A stretch of DNA of 63,363 bases, counting the filler, from Candidatus Woesearchaeota archaeon (GTDB lineage: Archaea; Nanobdellota; Nanobdellia; Woesearchaeales; B72-G16), in the NCBI GenBank assembly GCA_003650545.1. It is 3 parts of 3 records of this genome, joined end to end, with 100 filler letters (N's around TTAATTAATTAA, not from the genome) between each part and the next. Parts side by side here need not be neighbours in the genome. Positions count along the whole stretch, not along the records: positions 24,422 to 45,207 come from QMQO01000022.1; 2 more parts are not named here. The stretch is one strand, 5' to 3'. Each line of letters opens with the position of its first letter. Position 1 is the stretch's first letter. The translations under genes and the position numbers were made by a program. Below, one piece after another: positions 24,322 through 61,924 of this stretch. The notes beneath the pieces were generated by a model. It was not told the origin of the DNA. It ran no database searches and saw only the letters and a program-made list of their open reading frames with translations.

Positions 24322-24421
24322 NNNNNNNNNNNNNNNNNNNNNNNNNNNNNNNNNNNNNNNNNNNNTTAATTAATTAANNNNNNNNNNNNNNNNNNNNNNN
24401 NNNNNNNNNNNNNNNNNNNNN
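24322..24421. other. artificial contig spacer
   Basis: N-run flanking TTAATTAATTAA (stops in six frames). Confidence 0.97.
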
Positions 24422-41785: not shown

Positions 41786-41992
41786 ATGGAACAAGTGAAA
41801 AAAACTTTGTGGAAAAGGTTTGGAGCATTTACTAGGGAATGCTGGCGCGTTTTAAGAGTTACAAAAAGACCAGACTGGCTAGAGTTTAAGACAATTGTTC
41901 AGGTGGCTGGTTTGGGAATGCTGATAATAGGCGCAATTGGCTTCATACTACAGATGATTAAGATAGTGTTCTTTGTAAAAGGGGGAATATAA
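41786..41992 (+). CDS. secE: protein translocase SecE/Sec61-gamma
   Basis: RVLRVTKRPD..EF...GLG..IIGAIGF; ftsZ-secE-spt5-rpl11 order. Confidence 0.92.
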   Translation: MEQVKKTLWKRFGAFTRECWRVLRVTKRPDWLEFKTIVQVAGLGMLIIGAIGFILQMIKIVFFVKGGI

Positions 41993-42465
41993 TGACAGAA
42001 CCACAAATCTATGCTGTCAGGACAACTGCTAATAGAGAAGATCAAGTTATGGACTTCATGAGCTCTAATATCGTAAAGAAAAAGCTCAAAGTTTACGCGA
42101 TAGTAAGACCGCATGGAATGCGCGGTTATATATTTGTTGAGGCTGAAACTAGATCAGATGCAGAGCAAGCAGCATTCAACATCCCTTATGCTCGCGGATT
42201 GCTGCCTAATGTTGTTGATTTTGAAGAGATCAGTCATATGCTTGAAGAAGTCAAGATTGCAATGACTATCAAGAAAAATGATATTGTTGAAATCATATCA
42301 GGACCATTTAAACGGGAGAAAGCAAAGATAACCAGGATTGATAAAACAAAAGAGGAGGTTGTTGTTGAACTTTTGGAAGCAGCAGTGCCTATCCCTATCA
42401 CATTAAAGATGGATGCTGTTAGAGTTATAAGGAGAGAAGGAGAAAAACCCACAGATGAAGATTAA
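41992..42465 (+). CDS. spt5: transcription elongation factor Spt5/NusG
   Basis: RGYIFVE, KOW DIVEIISGPFK, VPIPITL. Confidence 0.95.
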   Translation: MTEPQIYAVRTTANREDQVMDFMSSNIVKKKLKVYAIVRPHGMRGYIFVEAETRSDAEQAAFNIPYARGLLPNVVDFEEISHMLEEVKIAMTIKKNDIVEIISGPFKREKAKITRIDKTKEEVVVELLEAAVPIPITLKMDAVRVIRREGEKPTDED

Positions 42466-42519
42466 AAATCAGCATTATAGGTTCAAAAGAATTACGATTC
42501 AAATTATGAGGTAGATAAC

Positions 42520-43261
42520 ATGACCAAAGAAACGGTCGAAGCTCTCATTAATGGTGGCCAGGCTTCTGCAGCCCCACCATTGGGCCCCGCTTTTTAGTTT
42601 CTAGGCGAGAGGGCCTCTGGGAGTCAACATCGGCCAAGTTGTAGCTGAAATAAATAAAAAGACAGCTGATTTCAAAGGAATGCAGGTGCCAGTTAAGGTT
42701 ACTGTTGACACTGAAACAAAAAAGTTTGAAATTTCTGTTGGAACACCACCTGCAACTGCATTGATCAAGAAAGAAGCTGGAATAGAAAAAGCAGCGTCAA
42801 ATCCTAAAGAAGAAGTTGTCGCTGATCTTGCTATTGAGCAGGTTATTAAGATTGCAAAGATGAAAGAGGATGTTCTACTTGGTAGAGATAATGTTGCCAA
42901 GGTAAAAGAGATAATTGGCACATGCCAGAGCATGGGTGTGATGGTCGAGGGCAAGCCTGCTTCTGAAATATTGAAAGATATTGAAGCAGGAAAATTTAAG
43001 AGAGAGATTGAAGCTGGCAAAACTGAGTTAACAGAAGAAGAAAAAAAGGAGCTAGAAGAAGAAAAGAAAAAACTCGCAGAGGAATTAAAAGCTAAACGCG
43101 AACAGTATGTTGCCATGGCAAAAGACATAATGAAACAAATGGAAGGTAAGGAAGAAAGAGAATTAAAGAAAAAAATGATGGAAGCAAAAATTCCTTTGAC
43201 AATTATTAATGAATTGGTTGGTGCTGGTGAAAAGAAGTCTGAAGCTGGAGAAAAAAAATAA
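42520..43261 (+). CDS. rpl11: 50S ribosomal protein L11 (uL11), join(42520..42593,42610..43261)
   Basis: MTKETVEALINGGQASAAPPLGPA joins LGPLGVNIGQVV only after removing 16 nt; 241 aa after splicing. Confidence 0.9.
42594..42609 (+). other. 16-nt bulge-helix-bulge pre-mRNA intron
   Basis: GGCCC-CGCT-[TTT]-TAG-TTT-CTA-GGCG-[AGA]-GGGCC; cuts TT^T and AG^A restore GCT TTA GGG CCT. Confidence 0.85.
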
Positions 43262-43456: not shown

Positions 43457-44281
43457 TTATTTTGACAGGTTTTTATATCTAACATACTTCACATTCATAT
43501 GGTCTAATAACTGGACAATCTTTTTTTTGTGGGGTCCTAGCCCCTTCCAATCAAGTATAACCAGATCGACTTTTTCCATAGTCTTGTTAATGGCTTGATT
43601 AAGCAGATCGTTGTTTAAATATCCTAACATGTGCTTTGCGCAAATATGACTCACTGCATATTCGGTTTTTAACATCACTTTAGTCACAACTTGGTTATAA
43701 TGGCCACCACCTAAAACTATTGCAGTTTTATATTTAGGGATGTTTCCAGAAAACATACTTGTTATGGTTCTGGCTATGATCTCACCAGCTTTTTTGTTTG
43801 TCCACTGCTTTTCAGTGCTGCCTATTTCAATAAACATAACAGGTTTTTCAAGATATGGACCATGATGGGTTTGCTCTAAAGTAACTTCAAACTCTGTGTT
43901 TTTCCCAAGCTCGTTTAGTTTCAGCAATGCTAATTTAAGATATGTAGCAGGGGCTATGCAAAGCTGATACGGCCTTCCGCCATGGCTATTGTCGTCACTC
44001 CAGTTACCTGGCGAATGTACTGATAAAGAGGGTACTTCTTGCTTTGATCTATGCTTTGTTGCAAAAACAAATAAGTCTGCTTCTATTTCTTTATCAATAT
44101 CTTCATTATAGATAGACTCCTTTTCTAGAGTGTAGATTTTTAATGTGCTGCTGTAAAGTTGTTTTTCAAACACTCTTTCTCCATGAAATGTTTCATCTGT
44201 TTCTTTAAATTCAAGAAGTAAATGCTCCTTTATATTCATTCCTGCTTTATCTGGCTTACAGCAGATTATTGCGATTTTCAT
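43457..44281 (-). CDS. dtdA: D-aminoacyl-tRNA deacylase (DTD2/DtdA)
   Basis: KHRS, SLSVHSPGN, EQTHHGP, FIEIGS, GGGHY. Confidence 0.9.
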   Translation of the reverse strand: MKIAIICCKPDKAGMNIKEHLLLEFKETDETFHGERVFEKQLYSSTLKIYTLEKESIYNEDIDKEIEADLFVFATKHRSKQEVPSLSVHSPGNWSDDNSHGGRPYQLCIAPATYLKLALLKLNELGKNTEFEVTLEQTHHGPYLEKPVMFIEIGSTEKQWTNKKAGEIIARTITSMFSGNIPKYKTAIVLGGGHYNQVVTKVMLKTEYAVSHICAKHMLGYLNNDLLNQAINKTMEKVDLVILDWKGLGPHKKKIVQLLDHMNVKYVRYKNLSK

Positions 44282-45207: not shown

Positions 45208-45307
45208 NNNNNNNNNNNNNNNNNNNNNNNNNNNNNNNNNNNNNNNNNNNNTTAATTAATTAANNNNNNNNNNNNNNNNNNNNNNNNNNNNNNNNNNNNN
45301 NNNNNNN
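45208..45307. other. artificial contig spacer
   Basis: N-run flanking TTAATTAATTAA. Confidence 0.97.
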
Positions 45308-45359
45308 GAGTTTTCCTTCCTATAATTTTACCTCTCTTCATGGTAATACCTCCTTTGGG

Positions 45360-45680
45360 TTATTGCAGCAACTGCACCGCGGGCTCAAGACCCCCGATAA
45401 TCGTATCGAGCTTCACCCGCACATCATCGATCTCACCAGCCTCTAACGAAGCTTTGAGTTCTTTCAGACGCAATACAGCTTCCTTTATGGTTTCTGTATA
45501 GTCGTCCACCTCAGCTTCGAGCTCTCCAATGCGATCATCAAGCCTGTCTATCGTATCGTATGCATCATCTGCTCTGTCTGTTGCATCAGAGAGTTCATTC
45601 TCAAGCTCGGAGATGTATTTTTCGTATTCATCTACTGATTCGTGGATGGCAAATATCTCTTTATTGGACATCTTAGACAT
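45360..45680 (-). CDS. acidic coiled-coil protein
   Basis: heptad pattern; AAAGGAGG SD upstream. Confidence 0.55.
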   Translation of the reverse strand: MSKMSNKEIFAIHESVDEYEKYISELENELSDATDRADDAYDTIDRLDDRIGELEAEVDDYTETIKEAVLRLKELKASLEAGEIDDVRVKLDTIIGGLEPAVQLLQ

Positions 45681-46253
45681 ATATAAAACCTCCTTTATTT
45701 ATTTTACCCTGGCCGAACCCGGGTTCAGCACACCCCCTGACATGCCGTCAGACGCACAGAAATGCCCCTAGAATCCATTTTCTCATGCGGGGGTATACCT
45801 ATATATGGGTTCGATCAGTATGGGTTACGGTGTACTAAAAGGTACACCAGACTTATTTTAATTACGACAACGAAAATTGAAGGAAACAGTTTATGAAGAC
45901 TAAAAGTGTAACGTCACATCACTCACCAAATTTCGCATCAGACGCACAGAAATGGGTCTAGAATCCATTTTGTGTAATTTTTACCCATATAAAAAGGATA
46001 TGTCGAAAGTTCGACAGCAGATACATGCATACGATGCATGCATATATTGAACACTTTCGGAGTGATCACCCCCCTGGCCCCCGGAGGGGGGTCTTAGCAC
46101 CCCAAAATGTTCCCTTCTCTCCCCTTCTTCTCCCTTCCTTCTTCCCTTCTCTTATATATCTCATCCTATTAACTATCCCTTATTATCCCCTCTTATCCTT
46201 CATATTAATCGTGCATCATTGCCTTCGATATATATATATAGAGTGTTTTCTTC

Positions 46254-46304
46254 GTAATATATAATTACAGTCTTCGTTTCACTTCGACTGTAATTATATA
46301 TTAC
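46254..46304. repeat. perfect 19-bp inverted repeat
   Basis: GTAATATATAATTACAGTC-13nt-GACTGTAATTATATATTAC. Confidence 0.9.
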
Positions 46305-46417
46305 TTATACTATTAATATCTAACACAGAGCTTCGATCGAAGGCATTTTTACGCGAAGAAAGAGGGTGAAGACGGGGATATTTCGCGCAAAAGTGTCTAA
46401 TTTCGCGAGGGAAAAGT

Positions 46418-46479
46418 TCAGGGTATATATATTAATACATCAATAATAGATTATTAATATATTAATATATATACCCTGA
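46418..46479. repeat. 62-bp near-perfect AT-rich palindrome
   Basis: 20-bp perfect arms TCAGGGTATATATATTAATA / TATTAATATATATACCCTGA with further inner pairing. Confidence 0.9.
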
Positions 46480-47098
46480 GGCGCACTTTACAAGGTTCAC
46501 AGACGGGGACAACCACTGCTGCACTGCGCTGACCCTTGAGGGGTCAGCGCTGCTACGCAAGCCGGCGGTTAGTGTGTATAGCCGGGAGTGTATGCATGCA
46601 CTTCCGGGGGGAAGCATATTTACCCTCATCTGAGAGAAGAGTTTCCCCAAAGCTTCCTCCATAGATCCTTCGTGTAACTATTACAGTAAGGTGCATTTTG
46701 GCACGGTACTTGCGCACATCCCTTCGACAAGCTCGGGGGATGAGCTACTGCCCCCTGACCCCCGGAGGGGGGTTCAGGTTACACATCTGACATGCCGTCA
46801 GACGCACGTAAAGGGGTCTAGAATCCATTTACTCATGCGGGGGTATACTATAGTATACCCCGACTCCGAAAATGCAATACAGCGAAACCTCGTGCGTCTG
46901 AGAGCATTTTAGCGTCTATACGATGGAGCAGCCATCATGCATTTCGAAAAAATTTCGATATTATGCACCCCCCGCCCCCCGGAGGGGGGCAAAAAAAAAG
47001 AAAAGAAGTAAAGTATAGTTCCCATGTATATCGAAAAAATTTCGTTGTTCTCCGGCAGGGCTCACACATGGCAAGCCCTACCGGAGTAACGTTTATTT

Positions 47099-47515
47099 TC
47101 AGAATGTCTCTTCAGCTTTGGTGTCAGTGGCTGGAGTTACCTCCGATTCCACTGCCACCTCGGCCTCTGCTTCGGGCTCGGCTTCGGAGCGTGGTCGTGG
47201 CCCGAACGTTACGTTCTGCGCGACCACTTCGGTTATATATCTCCGTTGGCCGTTGCTCTCATACGAGCGACTGGCCAAGCGTCCCTCTACAGTTATGCTC
47301 CGGCCTTTGCCGAGATACTCGGCGATGTTCTCTGCCTGTTTTCCCCACGCGACCACGCGCAGGAAATCGGCAGACTTTACCAAGTCGCCGCTGGCAGTCC
47401 GATACTGCCTGTTAACGGCGATCGTAAAGTTCGCCACCGGGCGTCCGGACTGCGTGTAACGCAGTTCGGGATCCCGCACTAAATTCCCGCTTAAAATTAC
47501 ACGATTGATATTCAT
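47099..47515 (-). CDS. ssb: single-stranded DNA-binding protein
   Basis: NRVILSGNLVRDPELRYT, AWGKQAE, VEGRL, acidic tail. Confidence 0.95.
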   Translation of the reverse strand: MNINRVILSGNLVRDPELRYTQSGRPVANFTIAVNRQYRTASGDLVKSADFLRVVAWGKQAENIAEYLGKGRSITVEGRLASRSYESNGQRRYITEVVAQNVTFGPRPRSEAEPEAEAEVAVESEVTPATDTKAEETF

Positions 47516-48731
47516 TATTCTACCTCCTTTTCTACGACGTTTTCAGCCAATGTGGCTTCTACGTCGTCTTTTGTTGTGTTAATAACAGCTTTCCTTTCGC
47601 CCTCCAGCTTGTCTGCTAAAGAGCGAACTAACTTTGCCGCCGTGCCTCTGTTCTGCTCGACGGCTTTCCCGATCTCAGACCTGATGTCTGATGCTAATTT
47701 CATCAGGTCAGCAATTATTATATTCATACTAATTCCTCCTTTTCGATGATGATCTCGTCGACCACCTTGTTGAAGGCAGCCTCGGTCTCATCCTTCTCTT
47801 TGGCCGCGCTCTCATTTATCATCCCTGCTGCAGCCAGAAACAGGGTGATAATATCAGAAGCCATCCTTTCCAGTTTGGCTTCCTCGTTTTTATCTAAATT
47901 TTCTGGAAATATTATATTCATCTTTTACCTCCTTCCAGGGATGCGAACCAGTCCCATTTTCTCCAGCATCCACAGTAGCTTCACACTGGGATGCTCGGAG
48001 ACTGATGGACATCCCTTCTTGAGCCGAATCAGCGACCTGACCCGGCTTATAACATAATTTTTCTCGTCGTCCGTCGGACTGAGGATGACGTCCTCTTCCC
48101 TGCGACGAGAGTCTCTAACCACGATGGATATCGGCATGATGAGGGCATTGCCATCCTCATCGCACCGATATCCATTTATCACTCTATCTCCCCTTTCTTC
48201 GAGCTCGGTCCTATTGAGATCTAAATTCATCGATCTCCTCCAGGAGCTTCCTGAGTGCCTCGTCGCCGCCTTCGCGCCATGCTCTGCGGAGGATGCACTC
48301 ATGAGCGAGCTCTGCTAATTCATCGAACTCACTCTTTTCTTCTGCGGCGACGGGGAGAAGATCGCCACAGATGCACTCCCCATACTGACGACCATCGGAC
48401 AGTGTCCTGATGGTGTCATCGGGGGCATTAATCTCTTTGCCGCCACAAAAGACGCATGGAGTAGCGGCATATACCTTTTTTCTACGCATAAAAAATCACC
48501 TCCTTATGCGTACTTATCCTCGATTTCTTTCTCCACGACACCAGCGGCATCGTAGATGTCGAGGATATCATCCATTGACAATTTTATGCCCTTTTTCTTC
48601 AGTACGTGAATTATGTCACGTAACTGTGACGGCTTTATTAGATGTTCTTTTACGATTATTTTCTTCTTCATTGTTTCCTCCTTTCGGGGCTCTGTGCAAG
48701 CCCCAATTGATATATCTCTAATGGGAGCCAT
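47515..48731 (-). CDS. run of small hypothetical phage genes (47515-47727, 47724-47921, 47925-48230, 48211-48489, 48504-48671)
   Basis: overlapping stop/start, SD sequences; 48211-48489 has Cys pairs. Confidence 0.55.
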
Positions 48732-48816
48732 GCAAGCACCACTCGGCGCTTCCCAGCACAGCTCCCATGTACTTCCACACCGATCTTGGGTTCCAGAGAG
48801 TTAGATCAGAGTCTTT

Positions 48817-49161
48817 TTACCTTACGTAGACGATGATCTTCCCTCTCAGTTCACCCAGGGTGAAGGCATATACCTTTACCCGTTTGCTTCCCTCTCCTAC
48901 ACCACCGAAGAGGGAGCGGATAAAGGCATATTTCTCTCCCTCGTTAAGTTCTCTGAGGGAAGAGTCCTCGCCCAGAAGAGCCTTTTCAAGCTCATCAGCG
49001 AAGGACGCCTTCGTCTCCCATGTATCTAGCACGAGAGACTCCGCTGGGTGAATGAAATCCAGGATCCTCTTACCTGTCGAATAAGACAGGTATCCTGACG
49101 GGATAACTTTAGTCCCATCAGGAATGATCCTGAACTCCATACCCAAGACCGAGAATGTCAT
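48817..49161 (-). CDS. hypothetical protein, paralog of 51660-51998
   Basis: shared FRIIPDGT..VPSGYLSYSTG.RILDFI.P. Confidence 0.75.
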   Translation of the reverse strand: MTFSVLGMEFRIIPDGTKVIPSGYLSYSTGKRILDFIHPAESLVLDTWETKASFADELEKALLGEDSSLRELNEGEKYAFIRSLFGGVGEGSKRVKVYAFTLGELRGKIIVYVR

Positions 49162-49217
49162 TTAGTTATCACCTCCTTTTCTATTTTCTAATGGTCATAT
49201 TGTCTGCGAATTTATTC

Positions 49218-49568
49218 TTACTTCATATCACTGAAGAAGAATACTCGCAGTTTCCCATTTTTGTCTGGTTTGATCATCCCCGTGATTTGGGCTCCTTTGA
49301 ATCCATACTCATTGTCCGAGGATACAATCTCTTCCAATGTGATGTATACCATAGAGCAATTTGGATCCACTTTCTCTGGATTACCCTGTACAACTCTGAT
49401 GTTGCACTTCAGTTCCGTAGGATAATCTAGCATGGTCAGGTCGCCATTTTTGGACTTAGATACTATTACATTGGATCCCTCCTTAGGCTCTCTTTCCCCA
49501 TGGACTATTTCATGCGCGGCCTTTGCGATACTATTCATCTTCGAATTTGCACTAAAGAACTTAGCCAT
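49218..49568 (-). CDS. hypothetical protein
   Basis: AAAGGAGG SD. Confidence 0.6.
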   Translation of the reverse strand: MAKFFSANSKMNSIAKAAHEIVHGEREPKEGSNVIVSKSKNGDLTMLDYPTELKCNIRVVQGNPEKVDPNCSMVYITLEEIVSSDNEYGFKGAQITGMIKPDKNGKLRVFFFSDMK

Positions 49569-49632
49569 TTTACTACCTCCTTTCTCGGGGCCAAGCCCAG
49601 TAGGCGTGACCCCGAAATGAAAAAAGAAAGAA

Positions 49633-50121
49633 CTACTTTATCTTCCTCGGATCCAGGACTATGATCTCCAGCTTGCTCTTGCAAGCCTCGATCATCCTCC
49701 TTGTTCCTCCCGGCAGTCCGGCATATACTGCCAGGAGGACGGACCCTTCCTCCTCGAGCAGCCAATCCTTCATGGCTGCATTTCTCTTTTCCATGCAGCC
49801 ACGAAAGTATGGCTTCGAGGAGACCATTCGTACTTCGTGTGCAGCTTCCAGAAGCCGCTTGTATAGTGCTTGCGACTTTGGAGGCCATACTCTGTCCTGG
49901 CCCGCACAGGGCACGAATGCCACATATGGCACTTGTGTCTCTACACAGGCCAGACAGAATAACTGGTCAACGCCCAGCGCCATCCCTGTGCAGCCAACGG
50001 ATGGCTTCAATTCATGAAGTCTCTCCGTCAGCCACCGCAGGATGGCTTTATTCGCCGGGTGATCCAGGTTATACCCACCCGGCAGAGCACGTGGGCGATG
50101 CCCAGTTACTCCGATCCTCAT
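49633..50121 (-). CDS. DUF1273/YspA SLOG-family protein
   Basis: GVTGHRP, GMALGVDQ, RNAAM, GGT. Confidence 0.85.
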   Translation of the reverse strand: MRIGVTGHRPRALPGGYNLDHPANKAILRWLTERLHELKPSVGCTGMALGVDQLFCLACVETQVPYVAFVPCAGQDRVWPPKSQALYKRLLEAAHEVRMVSSKPYFRGCMEKRNAAMKDWLLEEEGSVLLAVYAGLPGGTRRMIEACKSKLEIIVLDPRKIK

Positions 50122-50321
50122 ACTTTTTCACCTCCTTCCATTGTGTCCAGGCCCTTTCGGTCATCCATGGCTTCCAGGGCTTCCTTCAGATACACCTCGA
50201 AAGGCTTCCTTTCCTTTCGGGGGCCTCTCCTGCTCCCATGTGACCCATGTTGCTGTCGTCCCCATGGGAACAGAAGAGGCTGACAACACTTAATTTTCAT
50301 TTTTCCCTTATCACCTCCTTT

Positions 50322-50868
50322 TTACCGAAGGACAATATTATCATCCGGCAACGATACGTGCAACGTTGCAGAGAGGTTGTCCTTCCAGAACCGGAAGTCC
50401 TCCTTGACTCCCTTCCCCTCTACTATAACAAGGGGACCCTTATTGCTGTAATAAAGTAGAGTAAGGGTCATCCCTTCCAGTTCGATGACCGTCCGGTCAT
50501 CGAACTCTTTGATTTCTACTTTTGTCTTTCTCATTTTTACCTCCTTTCTGGACGGCTTATCCCATCCACTTGCCGTCCATGATCAACCACCACCTTTTCT
50601 GGATCTTCCACGGTGGGATGACCCAGAGAATGGCGTGGCCCTCTCGAGCCAGCCGGGCATATCGGCTGTCTTTATATTTATTTTGTTCAATAAACGTAAA
50701 GACGCCGACTCCGGGCTTTCTCACCTGGATCCCCCGACACTTGCCGCCGGAGAATCCAATTACGGGGAAGCCAAGGATCTTGTCCCCTCGTTTTGCTTCG
50801 GGTAACTCTTTGGCTACCCGAAGAGCGAAGTCTTTCAACTTCGCCATATTAACTTTGTTCTTATCCAT
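50322..50868 (-). CDS. two small hypothetical genes (50322-50534, 50557-50868)
   Basis: each with AAAGGAGG SD. Confidence 0.55.
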
Positions 50869-50895
50869 TCTATTTTACCTCCTTTCTCGCCTGGC

Positions 50896-51237
50896 CTATA
50901 TTTTGGCCAGGCTTTTGCACCCAACGATCCGACCCGCATCATCGCGGATCGTCTCGTCGACGACATATATGTCGTCTCGGATGCTGTCAGAGGCCTTTAC
51001 AGCCTCGGCAACAACCCGGGAGACGATATATGCCGTCCCGGGTGCTGGATCGGGCAGGCCGGTTACCTCGCCCATCACAGAGCGATTTACCGGCACATCC
51101 ATCCCATCTATTGGGATGGACCCAATCCGTTCGCGGGTCACCCCGCATCTGGCTATGCCAGACGAGGGGATAACCCGCTCTTCATCCCCCACGATCCTGA
51201 TTTCGTGGGGGGTCAAATTTATGACTCTTTTATTCAT
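50896..51237 (-). CDS. conserved viral hypothetical protein (NLTPH family)
   Basis: INLTPH, PSSG.AR, GLPDP, YIVS, VGC..L. Confidence 0.7.
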   Translation of the reverse strand: MNKRVINLTPHEIRIVGDEERVIPSSGIARCGVTRERIGSIPIDGMDVPVNRSVMGEVTGLPDPAPGTAYIVSRVVAEAVKASDSIRDDIYVVDETIRDDAGRIVGCKSLAKI

Positions 51238-51254
51238 TGTCTATTCCCCTTTTC

Positions 51255-51446
51255 TTATTCTGCTCCACAGAACAGATATCTGTCCTCTACCCAATTAAAG
51301 AGGAGGATGTCTATTGTTTCCCCTCTGGCAACAACGTGTGCTGCCATAACATATCCTCTCTCTTCAAAGAGGACTTCGATATTTACCGAAGCAAAAATGC
51401 TTCGGACATACTTATCAACTTCTCCTAAATTTTTCAGCTTCTCCAT
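51255..51446 (-). CDS. small hypothetical protein
   Basis: AAAGGAGG SD. Confidence 0.55.
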   Translation of the reverse strand: MEKLKNLGEVDKYVRSIFASVNIEVLFEERGYVMAAHVVARGETIDILLFNWVEDRYLFCGAE

Positions 51447-51503
51447 CTCCTACCTCCTTTCTTTTGCCTCGGCCCGAGATGGGATGCTTCCACCGAGGGA
51501 GGA

Positions 51504-51589
51504 TGTTATGCAGCCCGGAAGACGGTGGCTGCTGAGCCGACTCCTTTAACCAACAGCTCTCATGTGTCGGCTCTGTCCATGGAAGCTGT
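51504..51589 (-). ncRNA. pseudoknotted RNA motif, copy B (unclassified)
   Basis: hairpin loop GAGCCGAC pairs with downstream GUCGGCUC; hairpin GCAGCC/GGCUGC. Confidence 0.65.
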
Positions 51590-51596
51590 ATACAGT

Positions 51597-51653
51597 AGGA
51601 GCTCTTGGCGTTACCCAGGGCGGACCACGCGGAGGTGGCTCCCGTACCGCCCC
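51597..51653 (-). ncRNA. minimal HDV-like ribozyme, copy B
   Basis: P1 GGGGCGG/CCGCCCU, P2 GGGAGC/GCUCCU, P3 ACC/GGU, L3 UCCGCGU, GG, J4/2 GCCAA. Confidence 0.85.
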
Positions 51654-51659
51654 AATGTA

Positions 51660-51998
51660 TTAGTAAAGGATCACCTTTCCCGTGATCCCTTTCCTGGCAA
51701 AGGCATATACCTTTACCCGTTCCGATCCTTTACCGACACCTCCGAAGAGGTTCCGGATAAATCGGAACTTTTCACCCTCATCCAGTGCAACAAGGGACGA
51801 TGCCTGGCCACTGAGAGCCTTTTCGAGCTCTTCAGCGAACCATTGGCGCTCGTCCCATGCTGCCAGGACGAGGGACTGCCCCGGATATATAAAGTCCAGG
51901 ATCCTCCTACCTGTCGAATAGGACAGGTAACCTGACGGAACAACACGGGTCCCATCAGGTATGATCCTGAACTCATGGCCCAGGACAGCTCCTATCAC
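51660..51998 (-). CDS. hypothetical protein, paralog of 48817-49161
   Basis: sequence similarity; SD. Confidence 0.75.
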   Translation of the reverse strand: MIGAVLGHEFRIIPDGTRVVPSGYLSYSTGRRILDFIYPGQSLVLAAWDERQWFAEELEKALSGQASSLVALDEGEKFRFIRNLFGGVGKGSERVKVYAFARKGITGKVILY

Positions 51999-52042
51999 TT
52001 TTTGTCACCTCCTTTCTGGGATACAATCCCTGATAAAGGAAA

Positions 52043-52228
52043 CTATTTTCTAGCTTCCTCCATCATAAGCCGATGAGTTTTCCTCATCAGCTTGTTGAGC
52101 TGACTGATCCTAGCCAGCTCCCTCTGGGAATAGAATCCCCGAACTTTCGCCCGGGCATCTATTCCCTTTATCTCCCGCAGGAGATCTTTCTTAAGTTCTC
52201 CTGCAAGGAGCAGACTTTTCAAATTCAT
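52043..52228 (-). CDS. small basic hypothetical protein
   Basis: AAGGAGGTGA SD. Confidence 0.55.
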   Translation of the reverse strand: MNLKSLLLAGELKKDLLREIKGIDARAKVRGFYSQRELARISQLNKLMRKTHRLMMEEARK

Positions 52229-52376
52229 CTATTTCACCTCCTTCCTTCGAGGCCTTTTATGGCCTCTTTCAAAAACTCCGAAAAAGGCTTTTTGGCCTTC
52301 TTCGAAGTTCTCCTGCTCCCATGTGGAGCCCGTTTCCTGGGTCCACGTGGGAACAGGACTTTTCCCATGGGGGCTA

Positions 52377-52799
52377 TCAATGTCCCCTAAGAAGGGCCTC
52401 GAAAGGCCTGTTCTTCGGGGTTGCTTCTCGCAACCTCCTGATACAGGCTTTCATCTCGGCCTTCTTTCTAGCCTTCTCAGCTTTCGCCTTGAAGGCTGCC
52501 TCCCTCTTGAGGAGGTCTTTATAGTACTCCTCAAGAGAGAGAGACAGGACGATCCCTGTCTCTCTTGCCAGCCTCTCGGCCTTCCTAACGAGCCGATTGG
52601 CTTCCTTTCGGGCCTCCCTGGTCCAGGGGACCCGATTGACGGCCCTTTCGGCCTCTGCGATGGCCTTCTTGGCCATCTTTTTCTGCCGCTTTTTGGCGGC
52701 AGCCTCTTTGGCGGCTTTACGCCGCCTTAGATCCTCCTCCAGGAGGATCGCAAACGGAGTTTCAATCCCTTTTACAACTAATCCTTTTTGGTCCATCAT
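52377..52799 (-). CDS. Ala/Lys/Arg-rich helical protein
   Basis: start moved to SD-supported ATG (MMDQK). Confidence 0.6.
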   Translation of the reverse strand: MMDQKGLVVKGIETPFAILLEEDLRRRKAAKEAAAKKRQKKMAKKAIAEAERAVNRVPWTREARKEANRLVRKAERLARETGIVLSLSLEEYYKDLLKREAAFKAKAEKARKKAEMKACIRRLREATPKNRPFEALLRGH

Positions 52800-52842
52800 T
52801 TTGGACCTCCTTTCTGGGGCTGAAAAGAAATAATCACGACAT

Positions 52843-52927
52843 GCTGCATGCAGCTCCTCCATACAGCTGCCGGAGCCGATTTCCATCTACAGCAGCTCCC
52901 ATGCATCGGCTCAAAAATGAGAGCTGT
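52843..52927 (-). ncRNA. pseudoknotted RNA motif, copy A (unclassified)
   Basis: loop GAGCCGAU pairs with AUCGGCUC; hairpin GCAGCU/AGCUGC; covaries with copy B. Confidence 0.65.
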
Positions 52928-52933
52928 TCCATT

Positions 52934-52989
52934 GGGAGCTCTTGGCGTTACCCAGCCCGAACCACGTGGAGGTGGCTCCCTCTCGGGCC
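52934..52989 (-). ncRNA. minimal HDV-like ribozyme, copy A
   Basis: P1 GGCCCGA/UCGGGCU, P2 GGGAGC/GCUCCC, P3 ACC/GGU, L3 UCCACGU, GG, J4/2 GCCAA. Confidence 0.85.
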
Positions 52990-53579
52990 ATCGCTGAGCA
53001 CTACTGTTTGCTCAGTAGGCGTTGGTCACCCGGACGCACTCCCCGGGTAAAAAAAGAAAATGTTTTATTTTGACCCCCTTTACCTGATGAACCACGTAAC
53101 TGGTCAGAGGTGTCTAACCAGTCCGGGCTCATCAGGCAGCCTCATCTGAGGAGAAGGGAAATTAATCTCTTCCCCTCAGATGAGCCTTCAGGTTCCTCCT
53201 CCTCCTCACGGAGAAGGGAACCCGAAGGTCCGGAGAGGTCTCCTTCCTCCGGAGATATACCAATCCCCTTTGGACGAAGACCTCTCCTTGGCATTGGAGA
53301 AGGTCGAGTCGGTCTTGTGAGACCAATCCGACCTTCCCGATGCAAGAAACGTCTCTCATCTCTTTCACCTCCTTTCGGATTATTGTTTTATGCAAAATGC
53401 AAGGGATTAATCCACTTATCCCATTCCTGCAATCACGCTAAGGACCGGAACCAGCCCCGAGGAACATATCCCATATATATTCCTCGATTCTCATCTAGGC
53501 ATCCCCCTTCATGCTCCTCCGGATAACTTCGACGGAGAAGAACATGAAGGTTTCAGCCTTCGACCGACTGACTCTCATC

Positions 53580-53762
53580 CTATGAGAGCCAGTCGATCTC
53601 CTCTTCCTCCCTCTTAAGGAAGGAGAGTATCTCTTCCTTGAGATACTCTTTTCCTTCCCAATCGAGGGAATGGAGGACTTCATGTAGCAATTTTCTTGCT
53701 ACAATTATCCTCCATCCCTCGGAGGAGGAGGAAGAGGGATTAACACGAGGATAATCCCTCAT
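53580..53762 (-). CDS. small hypothetical protein
   Basis: AAAGGAGGTGA SD. Confidence 0.45.
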   Translation of the reverse strand: MRDYPRVNPSSSSSEGWRIIVARKLLHEVLHSLDWEGKEYLKEEILSFLKREEEEIDWLS

Positions 53763-53898
53763 GGGCGATCACCTCCTTTCTTCCTCCCAATAGGACCGCC
53801 CCTGCTATTGGGAGGTTATTTTTTCGAGGTCCCATGTATCACGCTCTCCCATAAGACTGGGGGGCGTGAAACAAAGAACCCCGAATAAAAAAATACAT

Positions 53899-54118
53899 AC
53901 CATTCCCCGTGAAAATTGGAACCCATTTTTGTTCCACACAAACCATTCCCCGTGAAAATTGCAACAAAAAATTGCTGCACGTAAGATATTCCCCGCGAAA
54001 AATAGTAGAAAAATCTGTCATACATAAGCCTCTCCCTTGCAAACCATCCCGCGTAGAATTTACGTTTGTGTTAGTAAAGAAATCCATCCCGCGTAAACCA
54101 TTCCCCGTGAAAATTGCA
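53899..54118. repeat. iteron/operator-like direct repeats
   Basis: CCATTCCCCGTGAAAATTG x3 (about 53900, 53943, 54098) plus CCATCCCGCGTA x2. Confidence 0.8.
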
Positions 54119-54178
54119 CCAGAAAATTGCAGCAAATAATTGCAGTAAAAAATAATGGTGTTTAGTATGTTTTTGTAC

Positions 54179-54207
54179 TTGACTGCGGGGAGGTGGTGTG
54201 GTATAAT
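54179..54207 (+). promoter_or_regulatory. sigma70/sigmaA promoter with extended -10
   Basis: TTGACT-17nt-TATAAT with TG at -15/-14, heading the plus-strand arm. Confidence 0.8.
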
Positions 54208-54395
54208 GATAGTAGGATGACAAATAAAATAAATCTTCTTTTTTAGCCGCCGTTTTTTTGGGAGCTGAGCAAGGGGGTATTGCTTACTTTACAGTTCTAC
54301 TAATTAGGGTCCGGGTCACATCGAAGCTGCCGTGGTTCCCGCCCGTGTCTGCGGGGCTTCGATGGACCCGGCTAAAAAGTATGGGAGGTGTCAAG

Positions 54396-54764
54396 ATGGA
54401 AGATAAATCAACCAGACGCAAGAGACGCAAAAAATACTTTTTGAGGGCACTTGCTGCAGCAGCCGGCATAGTTATACTCGGAATATTAATGTTCGGCCTC
54501 GAATATACCGCTTTGATGTGGAACAAATTTTTTGGTCCCCGTAAAGAAAGTGTGAGGAGAACAGTATTTAAAGCAACCAGATCCTATAACGAAGCTAAAC
54601 TCCAGGATCTCACAAGGTATCGGCTCCAGTATCTGAGAGCAACTACAGAGGAAGAAAAAAATGCCCTGGCCTCGACTATAAGACATCAGTTTGCTGAGTA
54701 TGATGAAAATAAATTGCCGCCGGAGCTTAGGGACTTTTTGAGGAATATCAAATATGGAGGCTAG
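54396..54764 (+). CDS. single-TM phage protein
   Basis: GGAGGTG SD before MEDK; basic N-terminus then TM. Confidence 0.65.
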   Translation: MEDKSTRRKRRKKYFLRALAAAAGIVILGILMFGLEYTALMWNKFFGPRKESVRRTVFKATRSYNEAKLQDLTRYRLQYLRATTEEEKNALASTIRHQFAEYDENKLPPELRDFLRNIKYGG

Positions 54765-54804
54765 AGGAAGTAAGAGGGATAAAATAAGAAGGAGGTGAGA
54801 GTAA

Positions 54805-55317
54805 ATGAAGGAACTTAAGCTGAAAAAACTTCTAGCAGCTGTTCTGATTACTGGAACAGCATTTGGGTTATTGGGTTGCAGAATACCTGATAGAGACGCA
54901 GAAAAAATAATGAATAAAAGAACTAAGGAGGCCATGAAAGAAGCTTATGCCCAAATAGGTATGCCGGCTATTAAGAACTTCCAGGAACGAAAATTAGCCA
55001 AGATGATCTTCGAGCTGAGAGATCGCGAAGACCTTATTTGTTACGCATACCTTAAAAGCGATTATACGGGGAAGCTTGTTTACCTTGGGAAATGTATAGG
55101 CTATGGTCTTCCCTACTCAGTGCAGTATACTAATCCAATGCAAGTAGTGCGATTAATTGGCGGAAAATATGGTACAATTCCACAAGCAGATCCTAATGGA
55201 CTATATATGCCCACCGGATTGTCTGCTACATGGTTGATGATGCTAGATAAAGATGGTAATCCGAGGCCGGTATATATAGAACCGGAGATAGTTGTGTCGC
55301 CGTTTCCATTGCACTGA
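54805..55317 (+). CDS. phage lipoprotein
   Basis: lipobox LLGC; GYGLPYSVQYTNP, QADPNGLY. Confidence 0.7.
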   Translation: MKELKLKKLLAAVLITGTAFGLLGCRIPDRDAEKIMNKRTKEAMKEAYAQIGMPAIKNFQERKLAKMIFELRDREDLICYAYLKSDYTGKLVYLGKCIGYGLPYSVQYTNPMQVVRLIGGKYGTIPQADPNGLYMPTGLSATWLMMLDKDGNPRPVYIEPEIVVSPFPLH

Positions 55318-55375
55318 GGCTGTAAAACGTGTATTTTAGTCCAAAAAAAATAATCATTATAAGGAGGTTTTTATT

Positions 55376-55588
55376 ATGCCTAATAGCTATACTAATCCTA
55401 AGGGTGTTACCTATTATTTCCACAAAGTGGGACATTTGAAATTCTTTTCCAAGGATGAATACTACAAGGGCAGGCCGCCCGATGAGATACCGAAAGATTG
55501 CATAATAGTGGTTAATAAAAAAACCGGCCTTCCCTTCGTGAAGAAGCTCAAAGAGGTCAAGCAGAATGACGATAAGGGTGTTACGTGA
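55376..55588 (+). CDS. small hypothetical protein
   Basis: AAGGAGG SD; NKKTGLPFVKK. Confidence 0.6.
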   Translation: MPNSYTNPKGVTYYFHKVGHLKFFSKDEYYKGRPPDEIPKDCIIVVNKKTGLPFVKKLKEVKQNDDKGVT

Positions 55589-55650
55589 GCCGCGTAGTGC
55601 AAACACGTGGTGCAATAAAGTCTAAATAATTCAAAAAAAGCTATCGGAGG

Positions 55651-56454
55651 ATGGATGGTATGACGGTTAGGCCTTATTACGAAAAAGGAAACTTTAAACT
55701 GTATCACGGTGACTGTGTAGACGTAATGAAATCTTTTCCCGCCGAAAGTTTCGATATGATTTTCGCTGATCCGCCATACCATCTGTCCAACGGCGGCTTT
55801 ACCTGCCACGGAGGGAAGAGAGTGTCTGTTAATAAAGGAGAGTGGGATAGAAGCATGGGTGCAGCCGATGACTTTAACTTCCATTTGAGGTGGATCAAAG
55901 CATGCAGAAGAGTTCTGAAGAAAAACGGAACTATCTGGATCAGCGGTACCTATCACTCTATCTATGCATGCGGATTTGCTCTCCAGCTTGCAGGATACAG
56001 GATCCTTAATGACATAACATGGTATAAACCCAATGCGTCTCCCAATCTGGGATGCAGATGTTTCACTGCAAGTCATGAGTCACTGATCTGGGCATCGAAA
56101 GATCCAGATGCCAGACACACGTTCAATTATGATGCGATGAAAAATGGTAACTGGCACGAGAGGGATATGTTGAAAAAACAGGGGAAACAGATGCGTTCTG
56201 TCTGGTCCATTGCTACACCTAAACAGAGTGAAAAAAAGTCTGGTAAACATCCGGCGCAGAAGCCTGAAGAGTTGCTGAGGAGGATTATTCTGGCCGCCAC
56301 TGATGAGGGTGACTTGATCCTTGATCCGTTTACGGGAAGCTCAACAACCGGCATGGTCGCCTGTATGCACTGTAGAGGGTTCGTTGGTGTAGATACCGAA
56401 AAAGACTACCTCGACCTGTCTGTCAGACGGTTTGAGTCTGTTTTTTGTGTATAG
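55651..56454 (+). CDS. beta-class N6/N4 DNA methyltransferase (DpnB-like)
   Basis: FADPPY..SNGG...VSVNKGEWD before HPAQKP and DPFTGSSTT. Confidence 0.9.
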   Translation: MDGMTVRPYYEKGNFKLYHGDCVDVMKSFPAESFDMIFADPPYHLSNGGFTCHGGKRVSVNKGEWDRSMGAADDFNFHLRWIKACRRVLKKNGTIWISGTYHSIYACGFALQLAGYRILNDITWYKPNASPNLGCRCFTASHESLIWASKDPDARHTFNYDAMKNGNWHERDMLKKQGKQMRSVWSIATPKQSEKKSGKHPAQKPEELLRRIILAATDEGDLILDPFTGSSTTGMVACMHCRGFVGVDTEKDYLDLSVRRFESVFCV

Positions 56455-56506
56455 TTCTCCGAACCTGTTTACAAGACGATGCTTCGTAATACTGGAGGTG
56501 ATTTAG

Positions 56507-56845
56507 TTGGATATTGGGAGTTTTCCCGATGTTTTCGATATTACTGCTGCAGTTGTAAATACCATAGCTCATCAGAAAGGATGGTGGGATGTTCCTAGAG
56601 AGGATGGAACAGCTGTAGCATTGATGCACAGTGAATTGTCAGAGGCATTGGACTATATGAGGAATGGAAATCCTCCCTCCGACCATATACCTGAATACAG
56701 TGGCGTGGAAGAAGAATTAGCTGATGTCATAATAAGGATAATGGATTATGCCGCGGAGAAGGGTTATGATGTCGGTAGGGCCTTGTTGGCTAAGATTGAA
56801 TATAATGCGCAAAGGGAGTATCGCCATGGGGGTAAGATATTTTAG
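56507..56845 (+). CDS. MazG-like NTP pyrophosphohydrolase
   Basis: LMHSELSEALD, EEELADVIIRIMD, K..YN..R. Confidence 0.8.
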   Translation: MDIGSFPDVFDITAAVVNTIAHQKGWWDVPREDGTAVALMHSELSEALDYMRNGNPPSDHIPEYSGVEEELADVIIRIMDYAAEKGYDVGRALLAKIEYNAQREYRHGGKIF

Positions 56846-56962
56846 ACTTGCAAGGGGGTGCTGACAATGAAGTATGGATTGGACAGTTTTCTTCTTGGTG
56901 CGACTTTGCTAACGATTTTTGCATGGGTGACATATCTGTTGATAATATGGATGTGATGTATC

Positions 56963-57187
56963 ATGCCGACTTATGTATATTACTGTGAAAACTGTAAAAA
57001 AGAATTTGAGGTTTTTCAGGGGATTAACGATCCTCCGCTTAAAAAGTGCCCCAAGTGTGGCACAAAGCCCGAGCGGCTGATAGGAACAGGCGGCGGCATC
57101 ATATTCAAAGGGAAGGGGTTTTATGCAACCGATTATAGAAGCGAAGAATACAAAGCAAAAAAAAGTAAAGAGCGGACAGAAGGATAA
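56963..57187 (+). CDS. FmdB-family Zn-ribbon protein
   Basis: MPTYVYYCENC..CPKC..IFKGKGFYATDY. Confidence 0.9.
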   Translation: MPTYVYYCENCKKEFEVFQGINDPPLKKCPKCGTKPERLIGTGGGIIFKGKGFYATDYRSEEYKAKKSKERTEG

Positions 57188-57212
57188 ATATCGCAGAGGT
57201 ATAGAATACCTC

Positions 57213-58151
57213 ATGAACTGTGTAACCACCCAGTGGATTATCCTTACTGAGAATAATTCCTCTGTCCGCAGTTTTGTGGATGCGAACTGGCAGAAATGGG
57301 TTATAGATCCGGAGGCGCTGATTGCTGTTACTCTGCTTGTAGGAAGGTTCTCTCCGCCGCTGTTTGACAGGGCCCTTAGATGGATAGTGAAAAATGGTTC
57401 GTCTGTCTCTGTTCCCCGTCTTTTGAAGGTAATGAAAATATTTCCCCCGCTTATCGATGCAAGGATCGCGGGAGGTATATCTGATTATGTGTGTGAATTT
57501 GGAAGTCTCGGAGATGATGCCATGGATGACTGGATTTACATGGGTTCTGTTGCAAGAGAATGTATAGAGAGGTCTTCAAGGAAAGATGCAAGTGTTGCAT
57601 TTTTTCTTGGAGTTGATGAATATATTGACGCTGAAGGAGCATTCCCGGATGCTTCCGCAGGCGGCAGAAATGCTGATCCGATATTTGAGAGATGGGGAGT
57701 TATTAGACATAGGTTCTCTGCCGGCTTTCATACTATTGGCAATAGTTCCGTTCCTGCCGGCATAAGGATCAGAATCGGGGAGAAACTGGATTCGAGAGTT
57801 CTTGGTGATATAATTGCGTATATCGGTATAGCAAAAAGCCGCCATTTTGGTACATCCAGAAGCCTGGCAGAAAATCTCTATTATCCTCGCGATAGAATAT
57901 CAGACGCTGTTGAGGATGGCATAGACAGAGGGTTACTGCGCAAGGGCAGGAACGATTATTTTTCTCTGTCTGATTCAGGGTTTGACCTTCTGGCCGAGGA
58001 GGGGTGTGAGGATGCACTGTGGAATACTGACTGGGTAATCACATATTCGGGTCTTTCGTTCGGATTGTCGTTTGTTTCTGGATACTTTGATGAAGAGATG
58101 GATATGCTCTATACTGAGCTGTGTAATCTGCTTGAAGGAGGTGACAAATGA
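57213..58151 (+). CDS. hypothetical protein with C-terminal wHTH-like segment
   Basis: IDPEAL..R.SP.LFD.AL.W...NG. Confidence 0.5.
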   Translation: MNCVTTQWIILTENNSSVRSFVDANWQKWVIDPEALIAVTLLVGRFSPPLFDRALRWIVKNGSSVSVPRLLKVMKIFPPLIDARIAGGISDYVCEFGSLGDDAMDDWIYMGSVARECIERSSRKDASVAFFLGVDEYIDAEGAFPDASAGGRNADPIFERWGVIRHRFSAGFHTIGNSSVPAGIRIRIGEKLDSRVLGDIIAYIGIAKSRHFGTSRSLAENLYYPRDRISDAVEDGIDRGLLRKGRNDYFSLSDSGFDLLAEEGCEDALWNTDWVITYSGLSFGLSFVSGYFDEEMDMLYTELCNLLEGGDK

Positions 58152-58429
58152 TGAAAGAGACAGGAGACGTTGATATAGTGAAATGCGCTAAATGCGGTTC
58201 GCTGGATATTGTTGCAAAGATAAGAGAGACGAGATATGTCATGCTTTCGTATATGAAGCTTGATTCAGGAGAAATAGTAAGAGGCTTTGAAAGTGTTTCT
58301 ATTGGAGACAGCGGGGGTTTGTCGGCGGATGTAGAAATAATTGAATATATAGGGTGCAATAAATGCAATTCCAGAGATATTGTTCCGGCTACCGCCGATG
58401 ATGTAGATGCGGACTCGATAGATGCATAG
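58148..58429 (+). CDS. Zn-ribbon protein
   Basis: CAKC..CNKC. Confidence 0.55.
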   Translation: MMKETGDVDIVKCAKCGSLDIVAKIRETRYVMLSYMKLDSGEIVRGFESVSIGDSGGLSADVEIIEYIGCNKCNSRDIVPATADDVDADSIDA

Positions 58430-58458
58430 TAAATCGGGAAGACTATAAGGAGATCAAA

Positions 58459-58968
58459 ATGACCAGAGATGATATTTTTAAGATACGGGATATAATAGAG
58501 GCCAGACTTCCTGATTGTTATCCTCCTATTACTATAGTTCTGGAAGAAGATCTCCCATCCATGGTGAATATCATAGTTCTGGAACAAATGGGGGGTGACT
58601 ATGATGTAAAGACATATGATACAATTTACAAGGAATTGGATGGGGTTGCAGATGATGTATTGAAAAGAACGGTAGGGATTGCTGAATGGGATGTTGGTTC
58701 AAGTGATGGAAGGTATATAGTCCATTTCAATTATGATGCATTAAAAGATGAGTCACCTCCCGTTGTGGCATTCTATATCCTCCATGAAATATATCATGGA
58801 TATCAAGGTGAGTATATGCCCGAATTGGTGGCTCGAGTATCTGATCACACATGGCTTGAGTATTTGGAAGATGAGGCTGACAGATTTGCTTCGAAATGGA
58901 TTGATAAAATGCTTGATGAGGGACTGTTGCCGATAGATGGTTCACTTGAAGACTTTGGAAGTAATTAA
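58459..58968 (+). CDS. ImmA/IrrE-like metallopeptidase
   Basis: ILHEIYH...EDEADRFA. Confidence 0.7.
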   Translation: MTRDDIFKIRDIIEARLPDCYPPITIVLEEDLPSMVNIIVLEQMGGDYDVKTYDTIYKELDGVADDVLKRTVGIAEWDVGSSDGRYIVHFNYDALKDESPPVVAFYILHEIYHGYQGEYMPELVARVSDHTWLEYLEDEADRFASKWIDKMLDEGLLPIDGSLEDFGSN

Positions 58969-59208
58969 GGGGGTATAATTATGATTAGAGATTATAATGT
59001 TCCTGTGTCTTTGAGTTGTGATGGATCGTGTGAGAACTGTAATAACTTTGATGATGACGATAATATTGGATGCTGTGTTAATCTTCTTAAGGTTATTGAA
59101 GGAAACACCGATCCTGTTCCCGATGATGTTCGGAATATTTATGATGATCAGATTACCTACACTTGAGAAAAAGTGTAGGTAATTTGATCATTTAGTTTTG
59201 CAAAGGGT

Positions 59209-59436
59209 GTGATCATAGTGCCAATTAAATGTTTAAGATGTGATGATGTTTTGCCCTCCAATACCATGGGAATGCCTCTTCAGTGTATTTGCGGCGCTAT
59301 AACTGTTGTTGGAGATGATCTTCAACTGAGGGTATTTCGAACATTTGGTGATGGCCCAGGAGAAGGGTATGAATTTGTTACAGAGGATGAAGCGGAGAAA
59401 GCAAGAAGAAAAGGTAAACTGAGAGGAAAGGAGTGA
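59209..59436 (+). CDS. small Cys-containing protein
   Basis: IKCLRCDD..CICGAI.V.G. Confidence 0.5.
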   Translation: MIIVPIKCLRCDDVLPSNTMGMPLQCICGAITVVGDDLQLRVFRTFGDGPGEGYEFVTEDEAEKARRKGKLRGKE

Positions 59437-59445
59437 ATTAGAGTA

Positions 59446-61476: not shown

Positions 61477-61669
61477 TGGGTTTTTGAAGGATTGTTGGTT
61501 GTTTTTTGTGTTTTTTTGTGGTATAATAAGAAATAGAGGGAAAGCTCGTTTTGGGATTGTGGGATAACGATGGCTTGACATCTGCGCGATGATGCCTTCG
61601 CGGTGAGCGGTTCAGAGTAGTTTTAGCCAATCTTATCCCCGTCCCGTAGAAAATTGATCAAGGGGGGGT

Positions 61670-61924
61670 ATGATGGAGGATCCTACATCTAATCCTGTTG
61701 CTGTTGCGATGCACAGGATTTATGTTCTTTTGTATCATATAGTCAGTGATCTGTCTTCTGATGAAAAGTTTGAGAATTTGAAGTATTTCATAGATAATCT
61801 CGGTGAAGATTGTCCTTATGTTTATTCCGCCGCATCTTTGTTTTTTGATTCTCCTATTAACGGAAAACTGAAAGAGTTAGCTGATGCTGTAGCGGAAGGG
61901 AAGGTGTATATGAGAAGTGAGTGA
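61670..61924 (+). CDS. hypothetical protein
   Basis: 84-aa ORF coupled to next gene. Confidence 0.5.
   Translation: MMEDPTSNPVAVAMHRIYVLLYHIVSDLSSDEKFENLKYFIDNLGEDCPYVYSAASLFFDSPINGKLKELADAVAEGKVYMRSE

Follow-up and report, generated by a model that had tools for sequence, protein, structure and literature searches.

A predicted bulge-helix-bulge intron within the ribosomal protein L11 reading frame of a Woesearchaeota archaeon

In a Candidatus Woesearchaeota archaeon (assembly GCA_003650545.1), the gene rpl11 is interrupted inside a conserved motif of ribosomal protein L11, which raises the question whether this gene is dead, whether ribosomes read across the break, or whether the interruption is removed from the mRNA. 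The first-pass annotation of the 63,363 nt of DNA analyzed here, filler included (hereafter the window), had favored the last of these and proposed a bulge-helix-bulge (BHB) intron. As it had described, the PPLGPALGPLG motif is broken by 16 nt with an in-frame TAG. Frame 0 from the ATG at 42520 reads MTKETVEALINGGQASAAPPLGPAF and is then closed by the TAG at 42595-97; the downstream L11 frame, offset by +1, carries a TAG at 42602-04 and is open from 42605 to the stop codon at 43259-61, so that each frame has its TAG within the insert. We infer that a Shine-Dalgarno-like GAGGT upstream of the ATG marks the true start of rpl11 (Table 1). By Pfam, the upstream 25 aa piece matches positions 2-19 of Ribosomal_L11_N and the downstream 218 aa piece covers positions 21-58 of the same model as well as the L11 RNA-binding domain in full. 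As the two pieces fall on adjoining model positions, they are halves of one gene that is split inside the N-terminal domain. The neighboring genes encode SecE (41786-41992), Spt5/NusG (41992-42465) and, on the strand opposite to rpl11, a D-aminoacyl-tRNA deacylase (43457-44281; all Pfam).

Excision of 42594..42609 generates a 241 aa ORF reading ...PPLGPALGPLGVN..., and translation of the joined ORF thereby confirmed both the ALGP junction and the protein length claimed for this cut. The restored PPLGPALGP is found in 118 of the 119 relatives listed, the single exception being PPLGPSLGP. Moving the 16 nt excision by one base in either direction introduced a stop codon or replaced Leu by Phe; the structure-predicted boundaries are therefore the sole working 16 nt excision. 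The closest proteins in a search of 5.8 billion clusters were L11 proteins of Woesearchaeota and Nanoarchaeota with 234-277 aa and 62-75% identity, and both L11 domains are present in all 119 relatives listed. The Woesearchaeota L11 proteins among these closest relatives bear out the assignment to a DPANN host. It had also been anticipated that annotators would call this gene truncated, and the database indeed holds only the 193 aa downstream ORF (P0003) for the L11 of the window.

Independently of the split, the C-terminus of this L11 is extended by about 80 Lys/Glu-rich aa (43020-43258, residues ~165-241), an extension that is present in 119 of the 119 relatives listed and ends in a conserved I-P-x-x-I-I-N-E-L-like patch with several invariant columns. 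For this extension, Pfam returned only a sub-threshold DUF7900 match. Judged from these sequences, the long tail is a lineage trait.

BHB motifs consist of two 3 nt bulges separated by one 4 nt helix, as set out in a passage of PMC5829648, and part of PMC4033280 describes their processing by the endonuclease EndA in archaeal tRNA, rRNA and mRNA. The window site can be folded accordingly (Table 1), with the bulges on opposite strands and each located 3' of its own strand of the 4 bp helix. All pairings and bulges of the fold proposed in the first-pass annotation are present in the sequence. In the minimum free energy (MFE) structure, the outer and central helices formed along with the AGA bulge, whereas the 3 bp inner UAG/CUA helix with its 3 nt loop was missing. 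As modelled, the window copy is borderline between the strict hBHBh' and the relaxed form.

Table 1. Coordinates and structural elements of the split rpl11 gene in the window and of the inserts in two related loci
Feature	Position	Strand	Description	Basis
rpl11	42520..43261	+	broken after 74 nt by 16 nt insert	
Shine-Dalgarno-like GAGGT	42508..42512	+	7 nt 5' of rpl11 ATG (42520)	
rpl11 exon 1	42520..42593	+	24 codons plus TT of Leu codon	
rpl11 exon 2	42610..43261	+	Leu third base, 216 further codons, stop	
Predicted intron	42594..42609	+	16 nt; phase 2, within Leu codon of PALGP	
Putative bulge-helix-bulge motif	42583..42615	+		sequence, partial MFE, covariation with L008 and L009
Outer helix	42583-87 with 42611-15	+	GGCCC with GGGCC	read from sequence
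Central helix	42588-91 with 42604-07	+	4 bp; CGCT with GGCG	read from sequence
Bulges	42592-94 (5'); 42608-10 (3')	+	3 nt each; TTT (5'), AGA (3')	read from sequence
Inner helix	42595-97 with 42601-03	+	TAG with CTA; loop 42598-42600	read from sequence
L008 insert	2983-3005		23 nt; central helix AGCA/TGCT, bulges TTT and AGA	
L008 inner helix			TAGG/CCTA, loop 8 nt; inner helix 4-5 bp; outer helix 4 of 5	
L009 insert	2987-3005		19 nt; outer helix GGACC/GGTCC, central helix CGCA/TGCG	
L009 bulges and inner helix			bulges CTA and AGA; inner helix TAAA/TTTA, 4 bp, loop 4 nt	

Neither the motif pattern nor the folding energy singles out this site. A loose BHB pattern scan of the plus strand of the window with intron lengths of 10-200 nt gave 491 matches, and the pattern by itself is therefore no evidence. 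The folding energy of the window site was unremarkable (z = -0.93 and -1.26). Such z-scores are uninformative for the window and for the related locus L008 (z = -1.34) because the local sequence consists of GC-rich Gly/Pro codons. The requirement that the insert complement its flanks in register was more selective. Random 16-mers of local composition placed at the window site formed the 4 bp central helix in 1.0% of 200,000 trials, and random inserts completed a phased BHB (central helix together with three or more inner base pairs) in 0.066%, 0.061% and 0.036% of 200,000 trials per site at the three insert-bearing sites, the first value being that for the 16-mer of the window.

To place these three sites, related rpl11 loci were collected with search patterns lying both on and off the split motif. 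This yielded 554 loci, with one genome per species, and the best 80 of these 554 were examined. The gene was continuous across the site in 78 of the 80, for 72 of them as determined by script and for six, which had a variant motif or were missed by the regular expression, by direct reading. The two remaining Woesearchaeota loci, L008 and L009, carry inserts at the identical codon position. Applying the same cut rule returned A-L-G-P to each of them, the frame shift being 2 for L008 and 1 for L009, as needed, and for L008 too the predicted excision was the only one of its length (23 nt) giving A-L-G-P. The MFE folds of both loci are exact hBHBh' structures in the order outer helix, 3 nt bulge, 4 bp helix, 3 nt bulge, inner helix, and for L009 the z-score was -3.0. 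The epithet canonical in the first-pass annotation is thus fair for L008 and L009 with their strict MFE structure, but slightly generous for the 3 bp inner helix of the window. Furthermore, all three inserts place a stop codon at or across the 5' splice site (TAG, TAG and TAA in the window, L008 and L009, respectively), which overlaps the inner helix and is located at ~2984-86 in L008 and ~2986-88 in L009. Since the same arrangement recurs in two further species, the putative intron is not an accident of this assembly. The claim of a BHB intron in the rpl11 mRNA hence holds in silico and gains two species with non-identical, covarying inserts.

As to the names of these records, many with a Woesearchaeota-type L11 are titled "uncultured Methanosarcinales archaeon" (e.g. 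L002, L004 and L008), and one (L079) is titled "Campylobacterales bacterium". Such labels look unreliable for these bins.

When the window, L008 and L009 were aligned on the proposed structure, 94.9% of the 39 cells paired and five of the 13 pairs showed two-sided changes, a number reached by none of 500 shuffles; this support comes from three sequences, which may share ancestry. Sliding the partner strand by 1 to 3 columns reduced pairing to 16.7-46.2%. The exon strand of the central helix is formed by the third base of a Pro codon and the following Ala codon. It reads CGCT, AGCA and CGCA in the three loci, variants that are synonymous, and is matched in each case by the intron strand, GGCG, TGCT and TGCG. 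The BHB structure has been kept through compensatory change across these three sequences. The outer helix is weak evidence of selection at the RNA level because the Gly-Pro codons force four of its five pairs, and concordantly 73 of the 78 intron-less loci contain GGNCC...GGNCC. It does show that the rpl11 coding region itself supplies half a BHB at the insert site.

The distribution of the insert does not follow the relationships among its hosts in a simple way. In a maximum likelihood tree of 81 exon-2 proteins the three carriers did not group together: L009 was sister to the intron-less L015 (SH-aLRT 99), and the window and L008 fell into a weakly supported group of eight of which six members are intron-less. 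On this tree the trait needs three changes, at least two of them forced by well-supported branches, and constraining the carriers together cost 75 log-likelihood units (AU p = 0.026), values which are soft as they rest on one short protein. Possible origins are one ancient acquisition that was precisely lost many times, recurrent acquisition at a site predisposed to it, and gene transfer. It is conceivable, though we consider it unlikely, that BHB mini-introns are still mobile in DPANN protein genes, that rpl11 has been hit repeatedly, and that the patchiness reflects independent gains. The repeated hits at one codon would then be explained because the Gly-Pro...Gly-Pro codons around Pro-Ala form the exon half of a BHB, and a short insert would need only to pair with four exon bases to become spliceable. 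In addition, the intron might have been recruited to couple L11 synthesis to the capacity of the EndA/RtcB machinery, which also matures rRNA and tRNA. Whether inherited or recurrently acquired, the intron appears from its sequence to be under selection for RNA structure.

Taken as a whole, the sequence data make it highly probable that the insert is a BHB intron within the rpl11 reading frame, which we predict to be spliced by EndA and RtcB, and carrier cells very probably must splice this mRNA to make L11. The primary transcript would fold such that the flanking Gly-Pro codons form the outer helix, while the last base of the Pro codon and the Ala codon would pair with four intron bases as the central helix, leaving the two 3 nt bulges to expose the splice sites. 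EndA cuts BHB motifs behind the second base of each bulge. Cleavage at these positions in the rpl11 transcript would release the intron of 16-23 nt, and an RtcB-type ligase would join the exons. The Leu codon would be assembled from two bases of exon 1 and one base of exon 2, restoring PPLGPALGP and the 241 aa L11. Full-length L11 would arise from spliced mRNA only, and unspliced RNA would give a peptide of 25-26 aa. The stop codon of the intron might prevent ribosomes from translating through the unspliced message. Coupled translation could compete with folding, the motif being located only 74 nt from the start codon. Pfam detected no EndA or RtcB family match among 84 scanned proteins of the window. 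An alpha4-type EndA with an extra loop is attributed to DPANN lineages, from a set with a Woesearchaeota genome among its members, in a passage of PMC5829648.

Could the split rpl11 instead be a dead or truncated gene, disrupted by a small DNA insertion or an error, with L11 supplied by another copy or, in shortened form, translated from the internal Met codon at 42680? The database entry limited to the downstream piece would be in line with this, rpl11 lies on one 20.8 kb contig of the genome such that a second copy is possible, and a passage of PMC2738675 mentions putative 12 bp insertions in archaeal virus genes whose splicing was undemonstrated. However, three independent assemblies bear different inserts at the same codon. 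Concerning ALTERNATIVES, these three different inserts in three records rule out a mistake of assembly or sequencing. Moreover, the protein encoded by exon 1 is conserved although synonymous sites have diverged: tblastn against the L11 of relatives gave 68-84% identity (e.g. 76% over 25 aa), and the eight codons 5' of the intron differ between the window and L008 by seven synonymous differences and no amino acid change. All 55 invariant columns of a 32-protein alignment (31 relatives and the exon-2 translation of the window) are retained in the window L11, and the exon-2 ORF, of 208-253 residues, is unbroken in 81 of 81 sequences. A 193 aa product would be devoid of most of the L11 N-terminal domain, and neither the L008 nor the L009 assembly contributed a further L11 locus to the best 80 of the 554 loci. 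We therefore regard a dead gene as very unlikely.

The predicted BHB could also be an EndA substrate whose cleavage chiefly serves to degrade the mRNA or lower its expression, or to yield a small circular RNA, with ligation being inefficient or incidental. Precedents exist, as EndA also processes the 5'-UTR of HVO_1309, where removal matters for expression (according to part of PMC7714728), and cleavage of mRNAs by the eukaryotic TSEN leads to decay (as stated in a section of PMC10485636). Yet L11 is a universal ribosomal protein, and the frame and the invariant motif are restored exactly in three species, which a decay signal would not need. This makes a primarily destructive role highly improbable compared with productive splicing of the intron.

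Translational recoding, either by a frameshift or by a gene-60-style hop that starts at the Ala codon preceding the insert and lands on an Ala codon (GCG or GCT) near its end, is extremely unlikely. All three loci do have an Ala codon before the insert and an Ala codon in the new frame 16-23 nt downstream, a stop codon follows the take-off region in each of them, the frames of L008 and L009 overlap so that a simple shift is formally possible there, and the cbf5 introns were themselves once mistaken for frameshifting, as recounted in PMC2738675. In the window, however, frame 0 shuts at 42595-97 and the downstream frame opens only at 42605, which one frameshift could not bridge. A hop would produce P-A-R-G-P and lose a Leu that is kept in 119 of the 119 relatives listed, whereas shifting frame in L008 or L009 would lengthen an invariant loop by 6-7 residues. 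Recoding would also leave the compensatory changes of the central and inner helices and the constant geometry of 3 nt, 4 bp and 3 nt unexplained.

Two further candidates were rejected: self-splicing group I or group II introns have a core of hundreds of nucleotides versus inserts of only 16, 19 and 23 nt, with no Rfam match within the window, and TAG, which ends six of the 47 window ORFs of at least 150 aa, is therefore an ordinary stop codon here rather than a reassigned one.

The first-pass annotation had also suggested scanning the genome and relatives for BHB motifs at other frame breaks. In the window and the related loci this revealed the rpl11 genes of L008 and L009, but no other gene. 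In an all-against-all tblastn of 965 ORFs of at least 90 aa from the window and the loci, a screen blind to in-frame introns and to genes without a homologue among the loci, plus-strand frame splits were confined to the rpl11 carriers, recovered by 56 (window), 66 (L008) and 59 (L009) queries, and to L051. The latter case, an Spt5/NusG gene detected by 44 queries, was dismissed as a split gene since a 10-N assembly gap is located at 1094-1103. Three minus-strand sites were antisense images of the rpl11 inserts, and the other 34 were minus-strand matches to antisense ORFs with one or two queries each. Pfam indicated no other split gene among the 79 further ORFs of the window. A BHB scan combined with an ORF-fusion filter over the window and the 80 loci (531,892 bases) flagged 912 of 5805 candidates, mostly gene boundaries, and was discarded as non-discriminating. 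The window contains no tRNA genes; tRNAs in 60 of the 80 loci comprised two tRNA-Arg genes, both intron-less.

The remainder of the window shows some features of its own. It joins three contigs (1-24321, 24422-45207 with 20,786 bp, and 45308-63363), and each join (24322-24421 and 45208-45307) consists of 44 N, TTAATTAATTAA and another 44 N, which looks like a six-frame-stop linker. The third contig has a G+C content of 41-50% versus 31-37% in the other two, and most of its ORFs are without a Pfam match, exceptions being an N6/N4 DNA methylase at 55651-56451 and, at 59446-61473, a ribonucleotide reductase that carries a TSCPD domain. This contig could be a virus or mobile element, or it may stem from a different organism and have been placed in the wrong bin. 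On the first contig, a serine resolvase (15401-16162, minus strand) lies next to a fragment of a D12-class adenine methyltransferase (14533-15321, minus strand), set among many ORFs without a Pfam match, and this region (14533-16162) may likewise be a mobile element.

If the rpl11 intron is spliced as predicted, a second coding gene and, with DPANN, a second superphylum of archaea would join those with spliced protein genes, and introns down to 16 nt could occupy reading frames. The three alleles together with the empty site in the close relative L015 would offer a compact system for studying intron gain and loss. There are also practical consequences. Automated annotation gives a truncated L11 of 193 instead of 241 aa, and such calls could skew marker sets, completeness estimates and phylogenomic alignments that use L11. 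This suggests that other "frameshifted" DPANN genes merit a check for BHB motifs before they are labelled as pseudogenes.

BHB introns outside tRNA and rRNA have so far been few. In 2009, splicing was confirmed for cbf5 alone, introns in other genes being only predicted (as given in PMC2738675). The corresponding passage from 2020 lists a single BHB intron outside tRNA and rRNA, that of the cbf5 mRNA, and adds the 5'-UTR of HVO_1309 (PMC7714728), and a 2023 text considers that further EndA-processed archaeal mRNAs are likely still to be discovered (part of PMC10485636). Full-text literature searches, with most subscription journals and supplements outside their scope, returned no report of an intron in rpl11 or in a DPANN mRNA.

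Pre-tRNA introns, at position 37/38 and at non-canonical positions, share with the rpl11 intron an identical motif and a small size (a section of PMC5829648), and presumably, by analogy, the processing enzymes. In pre-tRNA, however, the exon half of the motif is the anticodon stem, whereas in rpl11 it is made of codons (Gly-Pro, Pro-Ala) of a messenger. The 12 bp insertions in archaeal virus genes (Peng et al., as cited in PMC2738675) resemble the rpl11 inserts in being very small, located in coding regions and proposed as introns, but unlike these they are presented in the citing passage with no conserved, covarying BHB. HVO_1309 of Haloferax volcanii is likewise an mRNA substrate of EndA beyond tRNA and rRNA, according to parts of PMC7714728 and PMC10485636. 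Its intron is located in the untranslated leader, where no reading frame depends on it, in contrast to the rpl11 intron inside the coding region. In this euryarchaeon with a dimeric EndA, processing was verified in vivo and in vitro, whereas splicing of rpl11 is predicted.

The closest parallel is the cbf5 gene of Desulfurococcales and Sulfolobales (Watanabe 2002, Yoshinari 2006, Yokobori 2009), which like rpl11 contains a short intron in the coding region. A BHB-like structure encloses this intron, which EndA cuts (passages of PMC2738675 and PMC10485636), and for rpl11 the same cleavage is predicted. In Crenarchaeota its distribution is patchy and has been read as gain and lineage-specific loss, and it causes errors in gene prediction (so a passage of PMC2738675); patchiness and misannotation are features that the rpl11 intron shares. 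The rpl11 inserts were nevertheless rejected as members of the cbf5 intron family: although the elements are alike in kind, Pfam identifies the host gene as rpl11, and the genome is of Woesearchaeota type. One gene encodes a pseudouridine synthase of Crenarchaeota, the other the ribosomal protein L11 of DPANN Woesearchaeota. The cbf5 motif, as far as described in the sources cited, is relaxed (BHL) and linked to a heterotetrameric (alpha-beta)2 EndA; among the rpl11 introns, those of L008 and L009 have the strict BHB form. Splicing of cbf5 was shown experimentally, whereas that of the rpl11 introns of 16-23 nt is predicted. On this footing, the rpl11 intron would be the second coding-region BHB intron after that of crenarchaeal cbf5 and the first found in DPANN or in a ribosomal protein gene, and it would carry the cbf5-type mechanism over to another gene and another superphylum, at an unusually small size.
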